IMG/VR virus record: IMGVR_UViG_3300045988_154391
DNA: 64,000 nt
Source: a virus
Taxonomy: Duplodnaviria > Heunggongvirae > Uroviricota > Caudoviricetes
Reading direction: 5' to 3' (one strand)
Under the pieces are notes generated by a model. The model was not told the origin of the DNA. It searched no databases and saw only the letters and a program-made list of their open reading frames with translations. Shown here in pieces: positions 35,631-50,530 of this stretch (the stretch's first letter is position 1; every line of letters begins with the position of its first letter). Made by a program: the position numbers and the translations under genes.

Positions 35631-35979
35631 GTTGTAACCCTTGAATATCAACCACAGAAAGCTCGTCTTTGTAGAAAAAGGCCAGGTTGTGGCACCCCCT
35701 CGTTTGAGCGTATGAGCTGGGACCAATTTCGTTCTTCCAGACAAATGGCTTCAAATCCGTACGGCGAAGCATAAAAACGCGATTTGTTCCGCTCTGATTC
35801 CCAATGAGGCAAAAGCCTTCTTTCACCTTGATAGCCTGCAAGTTGTCGAGTTCACCGCTGGTTACACGGCTATCGAACTCTTTGCGGCTTATTAGCTCCA
35901 TCTGCATCTGACGACTCCAAACAAATGCCCATTGAAGGGCGATGGCTGAATGGTACCGAAAATACGACATAAAAAACAA
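35623..35979 (-). CDS. Hypothetical protein upstream of hrdC
   Basis: 118-aa ORF whose start abuts an operator-like site; first gene of the apparent three-gene dmt operon. Confidence 0.4.
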
Positions 35980-35995
35980 TATTTATTAGAGCAAT
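35979..35995. promoter_or_regulatory. C1-operator-like 17-mer (16/17)
   Basis: AtATTTATTAGAGCAAT at the 5' end of the minus-strand operon. Confidence 0.5.
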
Positions 35996-36076
35996 TTTGC
36001 AATAGTTGAACTCCATGTAGACCACAAACAACCTGAGTTAAAATAACGAAAATCAGAGCAAATAATTGGTGATGAC

Positions 36077-36361
36077 GTGGCAAGTATTGCAACAAAAGAC
36101 AGCATTTGTTCGGGGCACGGAGGATTCCCATCCAGGCCTCCTGTAGAGAGTGAACCACTACTTAAAGTCAACGGAGTCGAAGTGTTAGTTGATGGTAAGC
36201 AATATGCACAGCATACCGATGGAAACAGTACGCACGGTGGGCAAGCTATATCAACCAGGGCATGGTTTACCGTCAATGGTAAAGGGATCGTATGCGTTGG
36301 TGACCCTGTTTCATGCGGATCTACCGTAGCGTCCGGAGACGGCCTGGTTCAGGTAAGTTAG
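36077..36361 (+). CDS. PAAR-like spike-tip protein (putative)
   Basis: 94 aa; ICSGHGG, HTDGNSTHGG and VGDPVSCGSTVASGDG resemble PAAR repeats; appears to start on GTG. Confidence 0.5.
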   Translation: MASIATKDSICSGHGGFPSRPPVESEPLLKVNGVEVLVDGKQYAQHTDGNSTHGGQAISTRAWFTVNGKGIVCVGDPVSCGSTVASGDGLVQVS

Positions 36362-36369
36362 GAGATATC

Positions 36370-37158
36370 ATGCTGGAAAAAGACTACCAGTTATCCGCAT
36401 ATAAAAAATTGGCTGCCGCCGGTGGGATGAAAACACCTGGTGCCATAACATCAGCACGAAACAGTGCTAACACAGCAAAACTGCTTGCAGAAGAATTGAC
36501 CGGATTAATTCTGGATACAATTGTCTATCCCGACACTATTACCAGCTATGTTTCAACGATCAGAACAACCACAACCGGCTTAACGAACATTGGAGAACTG
36601 GCAACTAAGCACGCGGACCTGTTGGCTGGTTATGCAGATCTGTCAATGCTGCTTCAACTCGATATTGGTTGGGATGTTTACTGCCGTGCTAATGAGCGAG
36701 AAGTATCAGAACTGCCGATCTCTATTGCCATTGGTGATGTGACTATTACTAAATCGCTTGAGGACGCTGTAAACGCGCTTAATACATCAAGTTTAGTCGC
36801 TGCTATGGGGGAGATTAACCAGACCCTTAACACTGGCTCAGGAAGCTCGTCAGGCTCTGGTTCAGGCGGCGGCACTGCCACTCCCCCACCAGCACTAACA
36901 GAAGAGCAAATTGAATCTCTGAAAGTAGCAACTGAACAGTTTGGGGTTGTTTTCAACCAGACAACAGCGCCCACAACTGCGTTACAACAGCAGTATGAAC
37001 GAGCGAATGAAAGCGCCAATGTAGCCATAACTGCTTATAACCATGCTATCGGTACTGCTCTTGCGGAAGCATCAGCAAATAAGGCCAGCACAGCCAGCGC
37101 AGTTGCTGCTTTGGTTCCTGATTCTGTTCTTGATGAATTAAACAAAGCGGCACAGTAA
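36370..37158 (+). CDS. Hypothetical protein with a Ser/Gly-rich linker
   Basis: ORF 36313..37158 trimmed to the ATG at 36370, which has an AGGAG 5-9 nt upstream. Confidence 0.45.
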   Translation: MLEKDYQLSAYKKLAAAGGMKTPGAITSARNSANTAKLLAEELTGLILDTIVYPDTITSYVSTIRTTTTGLTNIGELATKHADLLAGYADLSMLLQLDIGWDVYCRANEREVSELPISIAIGDVTITKSLEDAVNALNTSSLVAAMGEINQTLNTGSGSSSGSGSGGGTATPPPALTEEQIESLKVATEQFGVVFNQTTAPTTALQQQYERANESANVAITAYNHAIGTALAEASANKASTASAVAALVPDSVLDELNKAAQ

Positions 37159-37197
37159 CAAAGGACTTCATTGATAATTTTTTTTCAGGAGGAAGAC

Positions 37198-37620
37198 ATG
37201 TCATTCTTTTCTACGTTAAAAACAGCTTTGTCTTTGAAGGAGAAACTTGCTGCTACTGGTGTTCTTGTTCTGATTTGCGCACTTGTTGGTGCTGGGTTTG
37301 CATGGGAACGTCATCAGCTAAAGCAAGCCATCGAGAAAATTGGCAGTCTTGATCAGGCTGTTAAGGAACGTGATAAGTCAATAATGGATCTTAACCAGAC
37401 CATTGAGACGATGAACAAAGCAGAGCAACATTTTCACAGCCAGGAAGTGAAAAATGAATCAGAACAAGCCAAATATGCTGACAGGCAAATGGAACGAAAA
37501 GCTGAAGTTCAGAAACAACTGGTTGCGGCGGGTAATGTTCGCCAGCGCATTCCTGCTGACACTCAGCGGTTGCTCCGGGAGTCGATCAGCGAATTTAACG
37601 CCGACGCCGACAAAGGTTAA
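37198..37620 (+). CDS. Putative i-spanin (Rz-like)
   Basis: 140 aa from the ATG at 37198 (AGGAGG upstream); N-terminal transmembrane helix then coiled-coil periplasmic domain. Confidence 0.5.
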   Translation: MSFFSTLKTALSLKEKLAATGVLVLICALVGAGFAWERHQLKQAIEKIGSLDQAVKERDKSIMDLNQTIETMNKAEQHFHSQEVKNESEQAKYADRQMERKAEVQKQLVAAGNVRQRIPADTQRLLRESISEFNADADKG

Positions 37621-37786
37621 CCACCCTGCCCCCAAAAGTGCATTTATGTGCAGAATGCCAGAGTTTAGCAGTGAATATTTTGATGATCTGCCAGCGTATA
37701 TCCTCGATACAGAAACGATGCTGATGGGGATTAACAGGAAGAATCGCAACGTTAATGATTACAACCGCGCTATCAGCGGTAACTAA
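37535..37786 (+). CDS. Putative o-spanin lipoprotein (Rz1-like), overlapping the 3' end of the i-spanin in another frame
   Basis: 83 aa; MFASAFLLTLSGC signal with lipobox; Pro-rich mature part; starts 86 nt before the i-spanin stop and extends 166 nt past it. Confidence 0.5.
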   Translation: MFASAFLLTLSGCSGSRSANLTPTPTKVNHPAPKSAFMCRMPEFSSEYFDDLPAYILDTETMLMGINRKNRNVNDYNRAISGN

Positions 37787-37797
37787 AAGGGATTTTT

Positions 37798-38190
37798 ATG
37801 TCTGATAAAGTAACAGTAAAGCAAACTATCAACAAAGCGACTTCAATCTACAAAATTGAGCACATCACTGTTGGCAAGCCAGGATCTGAACAATACCGTC
37901 ATGCTTTCGAGCTTGCCGATCAGCTTGGTTTAAAACACCCGGATTGCATTGAGCATGTATTTCCGACCTATGCTGATGAGCAATGTACTCATGTTCTTAC
38001 CGAAGAGGATTTTTTCAGCACTGAAGAACGAGAAGGCGTTGATCGCTGCATTGGTGTGATTTGCTCTTCAGTGAGTTATGAGTTATTCCCTAATGTCCAT
38101 GAAAATGGTGGTATTGGATACCAATTCCTGTACGAAGGCGATGAGCTTAAATGTTATGAACATGGTCTTCTTATCGAAAGCGTAGAATAA
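37798..38190 (+). CDS. Hypothetical protein
   Basis: 130-aa ORF adjacent to the plasmid origin. Confidence 0.45.
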   Translation: MSDKVTVKQTINKATSIYKIEHITVGKPGSEQYRHAFELADQLGLKHPDCIEHVFPTYADEQCTHVLTEEDFFSTEEREGVDRCIGVICSSVSYELFPNVHENGGIGYQFLYEGDELKCYEHGLLIESVE

Positions 38191-38232
38191 TACCCTTCCT
38201 TCCAACCGGCTATGTTGGCCGGTTTATTCAAC

Positions 38233-38303
38233 TTATCCACAGCATAGATCCAATAAACAGATCCTAAAGAGAACCCAGGAAGATCCAAAGAAGATCCCGG
38301 ATC
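38233..38303. other. Plasmid origin region: consensus DnaA box plus five clustered GATC sites
   Basis: TTATCCACA at 38233-38241; GATC at 38247, 38260, 38282, 38293, 38300, mostly in AGATCC heptamers. Confidence 0.6.
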
Positions 38304-38343
38304 GCTGTAAGCCGCGCCATTTCTGGCCTGAAATGGGATCAAC

Positions 38344-38450
38344 ATTGACTATACGCGATTTTATGTTGACTGTGCACGATTTATTGTTGACTGCACGCGA
38401 TTTATTGTTGACTATACGCGACAGAAACATTGACTGTACGCGATTTTAGA
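38344..38450. repeat. Five direct iterons upstream of repA (incC-like)
   Basis: Five copies of (A/G)TTGACT(A/G)(T/C)(A/G)CGCGAT-like units at about 21-bp spacing. Confidence 0.7.
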
Positions 38451-38523
38451 GCCTGACTATTCACAGTTGTTGATAACTGCAATCCAGATGACGCCAGGCC
38501 GCGACACATATGGAGAAACCACG

Positions 38524-39408
38524 ATGCCGGAAGAAAATAAAGGCTTCCTTAGCGTTGAAGAAGTTGCAGGAAATACAGGAGAAATCCACAGCCTGAAACC
38601 CAATAACAATAGCACTATACAACCCATCGCTTTGTTGCGCTTAGGTGTGTTTGTGCCAACCTTAAAATCTACCAATGTGGCACTACGTCGCGGATCGTCA
38701 GTTACTACAAACACAACGAACGCAACCGAAGAACTATCAAGCCTCAAAATTGTTGAGCAGGAAGGCTATGAGGGAATTGAAATACATGGTCCACGCCTGG
38801 ATATGGATACTGATTTTAAGGTGTGGGTGGGCATAACCTCCGCGTTGTTTGACTACGCACCTGATGATGACGGCATAATCACCCTGCCATTCTCCGAGTT
38901 TGCCGATCGATGCGGCTATCCACGTAAGCGCCTTTCAAAGGCGTTCCGTAAAAGTATTGATGACTCTCTGACACGCATTCAGCAGACAGTTGTCAAATTC
39001 CGCTTCCCGGCGGCAAAAGGTCATCTCAATAACATTAACGTCAACTTGTTGGCATATAGCAGCCTGAATACCGAGCTTGATGTTATCGAGATCCAGCCGC
39101 AGAAACAGCTATCTGAACTTTACTATGTTGACTATAAGCGAATCCTGAAGCTGAAGATGCTGGATAAGCTCGGGCGCAAAGAGACGGCCAAGGTACTGTA
39201 TACATTCTTTGAGGCTCTACCTGCCAACCCGGCACCTGTCAGCATTGAGCGCCTTAGAGCAAGGCTTAATCTCAAATCATCCGTTAGCGTGCAAAATAGC
39301 GTTATCAGAAAAGCCATGAAAGATTTGGAAGCTATTGAATATCTTAAATTTTCAGAGATAAAAAACGGCAGGAAAATCGGCTTCCAGATCCATAAGCGCA
39401 ATCCATAA
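38524..39408 (+). CDS. repA: Plasmid replication initiator RepA
   Basis: 294 aa from the ATG at 38524 (GGAG upstream); P.ALLRLGVFVP and GPRLDMDTDFK resemble P1 RepA as I recall it. Confidence 0.8.
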   Translation: MPEENKGFLSVEEVAGNTGEIHSLKPNNNSTIQPIALLRLGVFVPTLKSTNVALRRGSSVTTNTTNATEELSSLKIVEQEGYEGIEIHGPRLDMDTDFKVWVGITSALFDYAPDDDGIITLPFSEFADRCGYPRKRLSKAFRKSIDDSLTRIQQTVVKFRFPAAKGHLNNINVNLLAYSSLNTELDVIEIQPQKQLSELYYVDYKRILKLKMLDKLGRKETAKVLYTFFEALPANPAPVSIERLRARLNLKSSVSVQNSVIRKAMKDLEAIEYLKFSEIKNGRKIGFQIHKRNP

Positions 39409-42985: not shown

Positions 42986-43097
42986 ATTTTACCTTCCTCC
43001 CCTACTCCCGAAAAAAATAAAAAAATTGCTTGTCACGAGAAAGTCAACAAGTGACTTTCAATAAAATCTCTTCCGAAAAGGGATTCACACAAGTGCC

Positions 43098-44825
43098 TTG
43101 TGTTTAAGGAAGAGTAAATTGAGTAACTTACGCGAATACCAGAATCGTATTGCAGATATCGCAAAACGCTCTAAAGCTGTGCTTGGCTGGGCAAGCACTG
43201 CGCAGTTCGGTACTGATAACCAATTCATTAAAGATGATGCCGCGCGTGCCGCATCTATCCTTGAAGCTGCACGTAAAGACCCGGTTTTTGCGGGTATCTC
43301 TGATAATGCCACCGCTCAAATCGCTACAGCGTGGGCAAGTGCACTGGCTGACTACGCCGCAGCACATAAATCTATGCCGCGTCCGGAAATTCTGGCCTCC
43401 TGCCACCAGACGCTGGAAAACTGCCTGATTGAGTCCACCCGCAATAGCATGGATGCCACTAATAAAGCGATGCTGGAATCCGTCGCAGCAGAGATGATGA
43501 GCGTTTCTGACGGTGTTATGCGTCTGCCTTTATTCCTCGCGATGATCCTGCCTGTTCAGTTGGGGGCCGCTACCGCTGATGCGTGTACCTTCATTCCGGT
43601 TACGCGTGACCAGTCAGACATCTATGAAGTCTTTAACGTGGCAGGTTCCTCTTTTGGTTCTTATGCTGCTGGTGATGTTCTGGACATGCAATCCGTCGGG
43701 GTGTACAGCCAGTTACGTCGCCGCTATGTGCTGGTGGCAAGCTCCGATGGCACCAGCAAAACCGCAACCTTCAAGATGGAAGACTTCGAAGGCCAGAATG
43801 TACCAATCCGAAAAGGTCGCACTAACATCTACGTTAACCGTATTAAGTCTGTTGTTGATAACGGTTCCGGCAGCCTACTTCACTCGTTTACTAATGCTGC
43901 TGGTGAGCAAATCACTGTTACCTGCTCTCTGAACTACAACATTGGTCAGATTGCCCTGTCGTTCCCCAAAGCGCCGGATAAAGGCACTGAGATCGCAATT
44001 GAGACGGAAATCAATATTGAAGCCGCTCCTGAGCTGATCCCGCTGATCAACCACGAAATGAAGAAATACACCCTGTTCCCAAGTCAGTTCGTTATCGCGG
44101 CTGAGCACACGGTACAGGCGGCGTATGAAGCACAGCGTGAATTTGGTCTGGACCTGGGTTCCCTACAGTTCCGCACCCTGAAGGAATACCTGTCTCATGA
44201 ACAGGATATGCTGCGTCTTCGCATCATGATCTGGCGCACTCTTGCGACCGACACCTTTGACATCGCTCTGCCGGTTAACCAGTCCTTTGATGTATGGGCA
44301 ACCATCATTCGTGGCAAATTCCAGACTGTATATCGCGACATTATTGAGCGCGTTAAATCTTCTGGTGCGATGGGGATGTTTGCTGGTGCTGATGCAGCAT
44401 CTTTCTTCAAACAGTTGCCGAAGGATTTCTTCCAGCCAGCCGAAGACTATATCCAGACTCCGTATGTTCACTACATCGGTACCCTGTTCGGTAACGTGAA
44501 AGTGTACGAAGTACCTGCTGGTATTTGTAAGAACTTAACGACAGAGAACATTCAGTTCAGCTCGATGGATGTGCTGTGCTACGTCCGTGATGAAAATCCG
44601 GGTAAAGCAGGCTTTGTGACTGGTGATGCTGTCCCGGCTATCCCGTTCCAGCATCCGACCACTCCGGCGCTGGTCAACCGTACCACACTGTGGGGTTCGG
44701 CTATCAACGATATGCACCCACGCAACGGCGCTGATTACTTCACTCGTGTAACGCTGACAATGGCCAAAAAAGGCGGGCTTAACTTTATAAGCGGCGACAC
44801 GATTGATGCCGGTGACTCTGAGTAA
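43098..44825 (+). CDS. Large structural protein, possibly the major head protein (P1 gene 23 position)
   Basis: Track ORF starts on TTG at 43098; a second TTG at 43119 has a better AGGAAGAG upstream; functional call is from synteny only. Confidence 0.4.
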   Translation: MCLRKSKLSNLREYQNRIADIAKRSKAVLGWASTAQFGTDNQFIKDDAARAASILEAARKDPVFAGISDNATAQIATAWASALADYAAAHKSMPRPEILASCHQTLENCLIESTRNSMDATNKAMLESVAAEMMSVSDGVMRLPLFLAMILPVQLGAATADACTFIPVTRDQSDIYEVFNVAGSSFGSYAAGDVLDMQSVGVYSQLRRRYVLVASSDGTSKTATFKMEDFEGQNVPIRKGRTNIYVNRIKSVVDNGSGSLLHSFTNAAGEQITVTCSLNYNIGQIALSFPKAPDKGTEIAIETEINIEAAPELIPLINHEMKKYTLFPSQFVIAAEHTVQAAYEAQREFGLDLGSLQFRTLKEYLSHEQDMLRLRIMIWRTLATDTFDIALPVNQSFDVWATIIRGKFQTVYRDIIERVKSSGAMGMFAGADAASFFKQLPKDFFQPAEDYIQTPYVHYIGTLFGNVKVYEVPAGICKNLTTENIQFSSMDVLCYVRDENPGKAGFVTGDAVPAIPFQHPTTPALVNRTTLWGSAINDMHPRNGADYFTRVTLTMAKKGGLNFISGDTIDAGDSE

Positions 44826-49684: not shown

Positions 49685-50530
49685 TCACCCTCTGAATCCT
49701 GCCGGTATACCCCATTGTTCGTTATCTTTATTTTTGGCTAAAACCGCATTAAGAGCTTCGTTTACCGTCATGCAATGCGGCAAATTATCGAAGTTTGATA
49801 CCCCGCCAATATCAGGAGAACGCTTGTTCTTCAGGTAAGCATATTTCCGCGCTGCCGCCTCTACTTTCTGCTTGAACTCATGTTTTTGAGCGCGCTTTTT
49901 GGATAACCGCAGATTGTCAGCCTTTGCTTTTGCCTCAGCGATCCATGAAGTCAATTTTTTGAGTCTGCTCGTTCCGGCACCGCCGGAAACTGATCTTTTT
50001 GTTTTTTTAACTTGTGACTTCTTATTCTTTATTGCCACGTCATCCTGACAGGGGGAGGGGGTATCATTTTGACATGGGGGTGTGGATAAAAAATTAAATA
50101 AAGCCAATGTCTTAGCGAGAACAGCTTTAACCTTGGTTGCCGCTGAAGAGATCTTTAATTTGCTTTCAATCAGCGCATTTTTGGCTTGTTGTGCGAAGGC
50201 CAAAAAGGATGGCGTAAACCGGTACAGGTTAGCGCGACGTTCACGGTGATCGCCGATAACAATCTCTACAGACAGAATTCCTTTGTTTACAGCTTCACGG
50301 AATGCACGAACGACGGTTGATTGGCTATAACCAGTTTCTGCCGCGATCAGGCGGTGAGGCTTGTGAATGAAGTATTCACTGGTTGTTGCCGCGAGATTTG
50401 CACATTGCGACAGGATATGCCCGGCGCTACGGGATAGACCGGAGTATGTTACAAAGCAGGCCAATTCATAGCCAGAAAAAGTAAAATCGCTCATCGTTAT
50501 ACAGCTCAGGAAAGTGACTTTAGCCAGCAT
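49685..50530 (-). CDS. repL: Lytic replication initiator RepL-like protein
   Basis: 281 aa directly downstream of the kilA-like gene, as in the P1 kilA-repL operon. Confidence 0.65.
   Translation of the reverse strand: MLAKVTFLSCITMSDFTFSGYELACFVTYSGLSRSAGHILSQCANLAATTSEYFIHKPHRLIAAETGYSQSTVVRAFREAVNKGILSVEIVIGDHRERRANLYRFTPSFLAFAQQAKNALIESKLKISSAATKVKAVLAKTLALFNFLSTPPCQNDTPSPCQDDVAIKNKKSQVKKTKRSVSGGAGTSRLKKLTSWIAEAKAKADNLRLSKKRAQKHEFKQKVEAAARKYAYLKNKRSPDIGGVSNFDNLPHCMTVNEALNAVLAKNKDNEQWGIPAGFRG

Follow-up and report, generated by a model that had tools for sequence, protein, structure and literature searches.

Overlapped genes for an inner-membrane and an outer-membrane spanin (i-spanin and o-spanin) form a classic arrangement. 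How, then, is such a pair to be read when it lies next to a plasmid origin, far from any holin or endolysin gene? The question is raised by positions 37198–37786 of the 64,000-nucleotide stretch of viral DNA analysed here (IMG/VR record IMGVR_UViG_3300045988_154391; hereafter the window). We conclude, with a probability of roughly 0.8, that this locus is the ppfA/mlp gene pair of a P1-type phage-plasmid and a predicted two-component spanin. The features at issue are the following.

37198..37620, plus strand: ppfA, the i-spanin candidate, 140 aa, with a transmembrane (TM) helix at residues 17–35 (nt 37246–37302) followed by a periplasmic helix, a linker and a further helix.
37454..37786, plus strand: mlp, the o-spanin candidate, a 110-aa open reading frame (ORF) in the +1 frame, with the lipobox LSGC at 37562–37573 and a mature lipoprotein of 71 aa.
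37535..37786, plus strand: the 83-aa form of mlp, which begins at an internal ATG (position −12) that occurs in the P1 lineage only, with no basic n-region and a poor Shine-Dalgarno sequence.

The 140-aa protein is identical to P1 PpfA at 140 of 140 residues, and likewise to the P1 OIS entry gp064 of SpaninDB, and the 110-aa lipoprotein ORF matches P1 Mlp at 108 of 110 residues, with both substitutions (S7N and V32A) in the signal region. The comparison with a curated spanin set that the original prediction had proposed comes out in its favour: SpaninDB (Kongari 2018 supplement, PMC6139136) lists P1 and P7 with an overlapped (‘ovl’) i-spanin/o-spanin pair of family ‘P1’, with no periplasmic Cys in the i-spanin and one in the o-spanin. 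Additionally, PpfA belongs to phrog_89 (‘Rz-like spanin’, E 5e-25, full length) and Mlp to phrog_30284 (‘Rz-like spanin’, E 2e-77), RefSeq labels P1 mlp ‘Rz-like spanin’, and several GenBank records of P1-like elements name the pair ‘outer membrane lytic protein Rz’ and ‘outer membrane lipoprotein Rz1’. In the account of Bednarek et al. (2022, PMC9025707), the partially overlapping P1 spanin genes lie in ‘yet another unlinked operon’, apart from lyz-lydD-lydE and lydA-lydB, and their citation of Summer et al. puts the pair in the literature since 2007. The Introduction of that paper swaps the labels i-spanin and o-spanin relative to the sequence features (TM helix in PpfA, lipobox in Mlp) and to SpaninDB. 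The suggestion that this is the element’s real spanin pair, placed remotely from its other lysis genes, is thus the accepted view (SpaninDB, RefSeq, PHROGs, PMC9025707). Papers and curated databases already contain both the pair and the spanin call, and the discovery value is small; what is added here is the selection on the overlapped frame, the offset of the lipobox Cys, the conserved 110-aa start, the late kinetics taken from published RNA sequencing (RNA-seq) and a weak promoter-like site. P1 is a workhorse phage, and its spanin is still a prediction and was dispensable for plating in one screen.

PpfA is built like a type II inner-membrane protein, with one TM domain at its N-terminus, as i-spanins are. 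Its ORF runs from ATG 37198 to TAA 37620 and is preceded by AGGAGG with a 5-nt spacer. The Kyte–Doolittle 19-residue maximum, 2.35, falls at residues 17–35 (LAATGVLVLICALVGAGFA), and the protein has no other hydrophobic segment. Lysines 8, 14 and 16 precede the TM segment, which fits an N-in/C-out (type II) topology. The 104 residues after the TM segment are 36% charged, and this periplasmic part lacks Cys and keeps a single heptad register across approximately residues 38–78. Specifically, an AlphaFold2 model built from ten homologues consists of a helix at residues 3–110, which includes the TM segment, a low-confidence linker at 111–119 and a helix at 120–138; its mean predicted local distance difference test (pLDDT) score is 69.6 and its predicted TM-score (pTM) is 0.28, and therefore its secondary structure alone was used. 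The alignments for this model and for the profile search described below left out the row of Cronobacter phage JK004. At moderate confidence, the periplasmic domain is thus mostly helical or coiled-coil, with two helices and a linker, in the manner of i-spanins. The original description of a 140-aa protein with an N-terminal TM helix and a coiled coil was exact in its coordinates, and hydropathy, heptad register and AlphaFold2 all agree with it.

The mlp ORF overlaps ppfA by 167 nt (86 nt from the 83-aa start) and runs 166 nt past the ppfA stop, so that the two genes are adjacent, with the o-spanin gene downstream and out of frame, in the arrangement classed as ‘overlapped’. The lipobox reads LLTLSGC, and its Cys codon (37571–37573) is followed by Ser-Gly; Mlp consequently carries no Asp inner-membrane retention signal. 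Mature Mlp contains one Cys besides the lipidated Cys, within an ‘FMC’ motif, and six prolines in 71 residues, five of them among the first 22. Of 528 spanin systems, 507 have one or more periplasmic Cys with which an intermolecular disulfide could form (Kongari 2018), and the second Cys of Mlp, kept in every lineage, agrees with the pattern of disulfide-linked o-spanins set out there.

The start of mlp differs from the one first proposed. The 83-aa model is one of four possible starts and gives a 12-residue signal without any basic residue; as a conserved start it was rejected on the grounds listed above, and ATG 37535 is probably not the start in use. ATG 37454, in contrast, is kept in all six divergent lineages examined. 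It is preceded by AGGAAG 6 nt upstream, and in every lineage an ATG at −38/−39 from the lipobox Cys follows AGGAGG or AGGAAG. On this comparative basis the 110-aa model is the sole start model supported across lineages. Position −16 holds TTG (37523) in the window and in P1, ATG in three lineages and AGG in JK004; a shorter Mlp product may arise from it, and the conserved upstream ATG, with its 38–39-aa signal, together with a start at −16 could provide two precursor forms as a regulatory device. The mature 71-aa protein is unchanged whichever start is used. Of the 83-aa Pro-rich LSGC lipoprotein originally described, therefore, the out-of-frame overlap and the lipobox hold, whereas the start is not conserved and the proline enrichment is regional only.

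The annotation of this gene is uneven. It is cut to 43 aa, with loss of signal and lipobox, in SJ46 (NC_031129, 2277–2408; our locus L002) and in the JK004 annotation, is uncalled in metagenome contigs and is ‘hypothetical’ in most PLSDB plasmids. In most of the approximately 650–730 P1-like plasmid records with the gene, it is missed, truncated or ‘hypothetical’, and the 110-aa model could mend their annotation.

Conservation across divergent relatives shows how both frames have been maintained. The divergent loci comprise JK004 (L007), whose PpfA is 59% identical, three lineages from metagenomes or genomes (L008, L010 and L011; approximately 60%), the more distant L012–L014, which encode a PpfA-like protein of 151 aa, and L015, a 1.2-kb metagenome contig. 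All of them retain a +1 ORF with a lipobox (LSAC, LNAC, LNGC or LSSC; LSGC in the window). Over the 52 non-overlapped codons of mlp, compared by the Nei–Gojobori method with four relatives whose i-spanins are approximately 60% identical, the proportion of nonsynonymous differences (pN) is 0.11–0.17 versus a proportion of synonymous differences (pS) of 0.64–0.88, whereas the two control frames have pN above pS and contain stops. Because pN is far below pS in the mlp frame alone, both genes are under purifying selection; by this sequence comparison, the selection on the overlapped lipoprotein frame is strong, and the frame is no chance ORF. In line with this, Mlp of all loci, down to the most distant relatives, keeps the second Cys (in ‘FMC’) as well as the DDLPxYI and INRKNxNVNxYN motifs, and in five lineages the distance from the ppfA start to the lipobox Cys codon is exactly 373 nt. 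Among lineages, 54–56 of 71 residues of mature Mlp and 24–27 of 32 residues of the PpfA C-terminus are identical, versus 6–7 of 22 at Mlp residues −39 to −18. The conserved PpfA C-terminus and mature Mlp are compatible with an interface between the two proteins.

The pair is part of an operon, upfC-upfB-ppfA-mlp-upfA, which leads up to the plasmid origin.

36026..36044, plus strand: candidate weak Lpa-type late promoter, AAACAACCT-GAGT-TAAAAT, 8.6 bits, the best match upstream of upfC to the matrix described below; unannotated in P1.
36077..36361, plus strand: upfC, first gene of the operon, encoding a PAAR-motif protein (Pfam PAAR_motif E 8.5e-6; phrog_281 E 2e-30); homologue of P1 upfC.
36313..37158, plus strand: upfB (phrog_1559 E 2.6e-138, match from residue 20), with its likely true start at ATG 36371.
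37798..38190, plus strand: upfA, the last gene before the origin (phrog_1453 E 2.4e-61); variable among relatives.
38343..38443, no strand assigned: five origin iterons, direct repeat family D1, with 21–22 bp spacing, upstream of repA.
38467–39408: repA, on the basis of the RepFIB / RepB family annotation in the closest records.

Expression of this block in P1 can be read from P1vir RNA-seq (PMC8201110, Table S1), which gives the following log fold changes for the wild type.

upfC: 4.9 at 10 min and 10.6 at 30 min.
upfB: 4.1 at 10 min and 11.1 at 30 min.
ppfA: 5.6 at 10 min and 11.2 at 30 min.
mlp: 4.1 at 10 min and 10.5 at 30 min.
upfA: 5.2 at 10 min and 11.2 at 30 min.
lyz, late reference: 6.1 at 10 min and 11.3 at 30 min.
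lydA, late reference: 5.2 at 10 min and 11.8 at 30 min.
S, late reference: 4.0 at 10 min and 11.8 at 30 min.

The upfC–upfA block thus has late-gene kinetics in P1 (4.1–5.6 at 10 min, 10.5–11.2 at 30 min) and is expressed late together with the lysis genes, as a spanin should be, whereas the flanking early genes uhr, hrdC, dmt, parA and parB reach 8.6–9.5 by 10 min in the same data. The P1 annotation lists only predicted sigma-70 promoters for ppfA. With a position weight matrix (PWM) made from eight annotated P1 late promoters, true sites score 17.6–21.6 bits; the best matches near upfC and ppfA score 8.6–8.9 bits, and a canonical Lpa late promoter for the operon was rejected. Nevertheless, the top match lies 27–34 nt before the upfC start in seven of seven lineages, at 7.2–12.5 bits, with homologous promoter-like sites at 2842 in L007, 1840 in L008, 1842 in L010, 1845 in L011 and 3814 in L013; a score of 8.6 bits is attained by 3.8% of random 160-nt windows. 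Positions 36026–36044 are therefore a candidate for a degenerate, positionally conserved late promoter, which could explain the late kinetics of the whole block. A generic scan of 35700–38600 for sigma-70 promoters and terminators gave the same counts as shuffled sequence.

Beyond P1 and P7, the pair can be set beside spanins of other phages. The P1/P7 PpfA-Mlp pair itself (P1_gp064 / P1_gp063) has the same genes, overlap, frame, lipobox, upfC/upfB/upfA neighbours and place directly upstream of the origin; P1 differs in that its Mlp is without S7N and V32A and that the adjoining replicon is IncY repA, versus the SJ46/RCS47 RepFIB type in the window. Like lambda Rz/Rz1, PpfA/Mlp combines a type II inner-membrane protein of helix-linker-helix form with a small +1-frame outer-membrane lipoprotein, is expressed late, and has prolines in the N-terminus of the mature lipoprotein and a periplasmic Cys in the o-spanin. 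Unlike lambda Rz1, which is fully embedded, mlp is overlapped with its partner; mature Mlp has 71 aa (8.5% Pro), against 40 aa in Rz1; PpfA has no periplasmic Cys, against two in Rz; the pair stands outside a lysis cassette; and the function of Rz/Rz1 is experimentally established, whereas that of ppfA/mlp is predicted. P2 LysB/LysC, from another temperate myovirus, has the same overlapped spanin architecture, with PpfA giving a weak profile match only. By Cys pattern and gene arrangement, the pair can also be compared with T4 PseT.3/PseT.2, in which, too, the periplasmic part of the i-spanin is Cys-free and the o-spanin carries Cys, a common combination (Kongari 2018). The T4 pair has a separated architecture and its o-spanin two periplasmic Cys, versus one besides the lipidated Cys in Mlp. 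In T4, too, the endolysin and holin genes are located apart from the spanin pair. In PHROG terms, lambda Rz is phrog_13 and Rz1 phrog_3198, and T7 18.5 is phrog_1327 and 18.7 phrog_4306; homology to T7 18.5/18.7 was rejected. The pair also has weaker matches to phrog_214, phrog_739 and phrog_456, which lambda Rz or Rz1 match weakly as well. As judged from sequence, PpfA/Mlp appears Rz/Rz1-like by every criterion applied, yet makes up a narrow family apart, known from P1-like elements only.

By analogy with lambda Rz/Rz1, we propose the following mechanism. PpfA would be a type II inner-membrane protein (N-in) whose helical periplasmic domain spans the periplasm, and in Mlp the lipid would be attached to Cys40 of the 110-aa precursor; because Ser-Gly follows the Cys, the Lol system would sort Mlp to the outer membrane. 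The two proteins would bind via their periplasmic ends, forming a complex threaded through the peptidoglycan. Once the signal-anchor-release (SAR) endolysin Lyz, timed by LydA/LydB, has broken down the wall, the freed PpfA-Mlp complexes might fuse or disrupt the inner and outer membranes and so complete lysis. All this would take place from an operon transcribed late, putatively from the weak promoter described above, beside the plasmid origin and approximately 40 kb from the other lysis genes. The spanin reading is supported as a prediction, and lytic activity itself is expected by analogy.

The position of the pair follows from the kind of element that carries it. The window is a P1-like phage-plasmid (Punavirus) with a SJ46/RCS47-type replicon. 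A 3.2-kb region around the pair is 94–99% identical to P1-like phages and plasmids (21 phage and 734 plasmid records, mostly E. coli), and the window maps in reverse orientation on P1 NC_005856, from c1 (~93.9 kb) to gene S (~37.1 kb). The alignment took in the fetched parts of P1; P1 48–62 kb was left out, leaving genes 21-23, rlf, repL and others (43–54 kb) unmapped. P1 homology stops at window position 38327, just past upfA, and is followed by the SJ46/RCS47-type replicon (RepFIB / RepB family). The placement beside a plasmid origin that had been reported is accurate, with upfA directly after the pair and then the five iterons ahead of repA. Equally, no holin or endolysin lies nearby: tblastn with P1 Lyz, LydA, LydB, LydC, LydD and LydE found no homologue in the window. 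In P1 the lysis genes lie at 20.0–20.9 kb and 30.4–31.5 kb, just beyond the right end of the window, versus 63.4–63.9 kb for ppfA/mlp, and in SJ46, a 103-kb circle that shares the replicon type, the pair lies at 1.8–2.4 kb, against 45.2 kb for lyz. In a six-frame lipobox scan, ppfA/mlp was the one place in the window where an ORF with an outer-membrane-type lipobox is paired with a type II membrane protein.

Several observations weigh against reading the pair as a lysis spanin. According to PMC9025707, the lytic function of the P1 spanin has not been verified experimentally. In a CRISPR interference (CRISPRi) study, the P1 plating values were 0.24 / 0.19 for mlp and 1.3 / 1.2 for ppfA, both non-essential, versus 5e-4 / 0.15 for lambda Rz, which was essential (PMC10695390). 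Mlp is a small lipoprotein with a lipobox and no retention residue at +2, as an outer-membrane o-spanin requires, but the conserved ATG gives it a signal peptide of unusual length, 39 aa; the SpaninDB curators called this signal ‘too long’, noted that the start may differ and recorded no LipoP call (PMC6139136). The strict Lpa late-promoter consensus occurs at six sites in the window, none of them near the operon. Pfam PF03245 (Rz) gave no match at E ≤ 1, homology to lambda Rz/Rz1 was rejected (E 0.27 and 0.007 in BLASTP single comparisons), and so was membership of P2 LysB (TIGR03495 phage_LysB), for which PpfA scores 18.2 bits (E 0.0023) versus a curated cut-off of 92.75. Moreover, no PpfA relative was found beside a holin or endolysin, whether in 50,697 phage records (tblastn), in 5.8 billion proteins (word-indexed search) or by HMMER. 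The HMMER profile search covered 1.84 billion representative proteins and gave only 33 matches, those examined being P1-like proteins or fragments, and all relatives found belong to P1-like elements or fragments and share the upfC-upfB context. The family is thus confined to P1-like elements and never occurs in a canonical holin-endolysin cassette, and genomic context therefore lends no independent support to a lysis role.

Among the alternatives, the one that survives best is that PpfA and Mlp do form an envelope-spanning complex between the inner and outer membranes, whose main job is other than outer-membrane disruption at lysis. The linkage to upfB and to upfC, whose PAAR protein is tail-tip-like, could point to another late role, such as envelope remodelling for virion release or assembly, or superinfection exclusion. 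The PAAR-upfB-ppfA-mlp synteny is invariant in every relative, including the most distant L012–L015 and six sampled lineages, no relative adjoins a holin or endolysin, ppfA knock-down by CRISPRi causes no plating defect in an assay in which lambda Rz has one, and the spanin function of the pair is a prediction alone (PMC9025707). On the other side, all structural criteria of a two-component spanin (Summer 2007 / Kongari 2018) are present, including the spanin-typical overlapped genes, and in its late kinetics the pair matches the lysis genes. Since the lysis genes of P1 are all scattered, missing linkage is uninformative in P1; plaque formation is also a poor readout, as spanins are dispensable in shaken laboratory cultures (PMC9025707). 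We consider this alternative unlikely. Because of the CRISPRi non-essentiality and the invariant linkage to the PAAR protein and UpfB, however, we retain a small chance that PpfA/Mlp is not, or not solely, a lysis spanin and constitutes a distinct late envelope-spanning module with another role.

A second alternative, which we regard as quite improbable, holds that P1-like phages do have a genuine spanin in this pair, but a redundant or vestigial one: the outer membrane would be broken mainly by another route and the pair would contribute little to fitness. Both genes are non-essential in CRISPRi, a further lipoprotein candidate in P7 was remarked on by the SpaninDB curators, and P1 has several redundant holin-like genes (PMC9025707). 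However, the strong purifying selection on the o-spanin frame (with pS saturated), the intactness of both genes in even the most remote lineages whose similarity can still be detected, and the presence of ppfA and mlp among the 21 ‘extremely conserved’ genes of 77 P1-like phage-plasmids (PMC9603915) argue against it, and the window contains no second gene pair with lipobox and TM segment. The weakest alternative, that the lipoprotein ORF is a chance open frame in and after ppfA and no gene, can be dismissed as having next to no likelihood: although gene callers leave the ORF uncalled in most plasmid records and metagenome contigs and the 27 codons 5′ of the hydrophobic core are poorly conserved, it is already refuted by the selection analysis, the lipobox Cys, second Cys and both motifs persist in the most distant relatives, and an mlp transcript is seen in P1 RNA-seq. 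Taken together, a two-component spanin remains the preferred reading of ppfA/mlp.

The neighbouring genes differ in how firmly they are tied to the pair. upfC synteny is conserved in all relatives. The P1-style 281-aa upfB model probably starts too early, since JK004 and other homologues begin with MLEKDYQ, equivalent to ATG 36371 with AGGAG ahead, and with this start the overlap with upfC is gone. In L008, L010 and L011, upfA is missing or has a Phage_gp49_66 gene in its place, and it is also missing in L015. In the latter contig, approximately positions 930–1246, directly past the o-spanin stop, translate as repeated HIVDK-like strings, which suggests tandem iterons; the linkage of the spanin pair with a plasmid origin may thus be ancient. 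Upstream of the operon, a C1 repressor operator (Odmt-type, ATTGCTCTAATAAATAT, minus strand) lies at 35971–35990 in the divergent uhr/upfC intergenic region, as in P1.

Elsewhere in the window, the only other serious lipobox candidate was a 275-aa ORF at 29495–30322 (minus strand), which reads MKKTLISAAIILGSLCLTGC and was rejected as a spanin on account of its SPFH/Band-7 domain (Pfam E 1e-30) and the Asp at +2. The segment around it (~29476–30896) does not align to P1, and the ORF is probably cargo in the variable tciABC/plp region. Two further stretches are unaligned to the fetched parts of P1: 8064–15064, around the pmgT-humD variable region, and 38328 to ~54400, with the RepFIB replicon instead of P1 repA-incA in the replication/partition region. 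Among matches to the late-promoter consensus, four correspond to the annotated P1 promoters LP26, LPs, LPsit and LPpac, and further strong ones lie on the plus strand at 23329–23347 (16.5 bits), 50512–50530 (16.6 bits) and 43049–43067 (19.1 bits), the last of these just upstream of a 575-aa ORF at 43098–44825.

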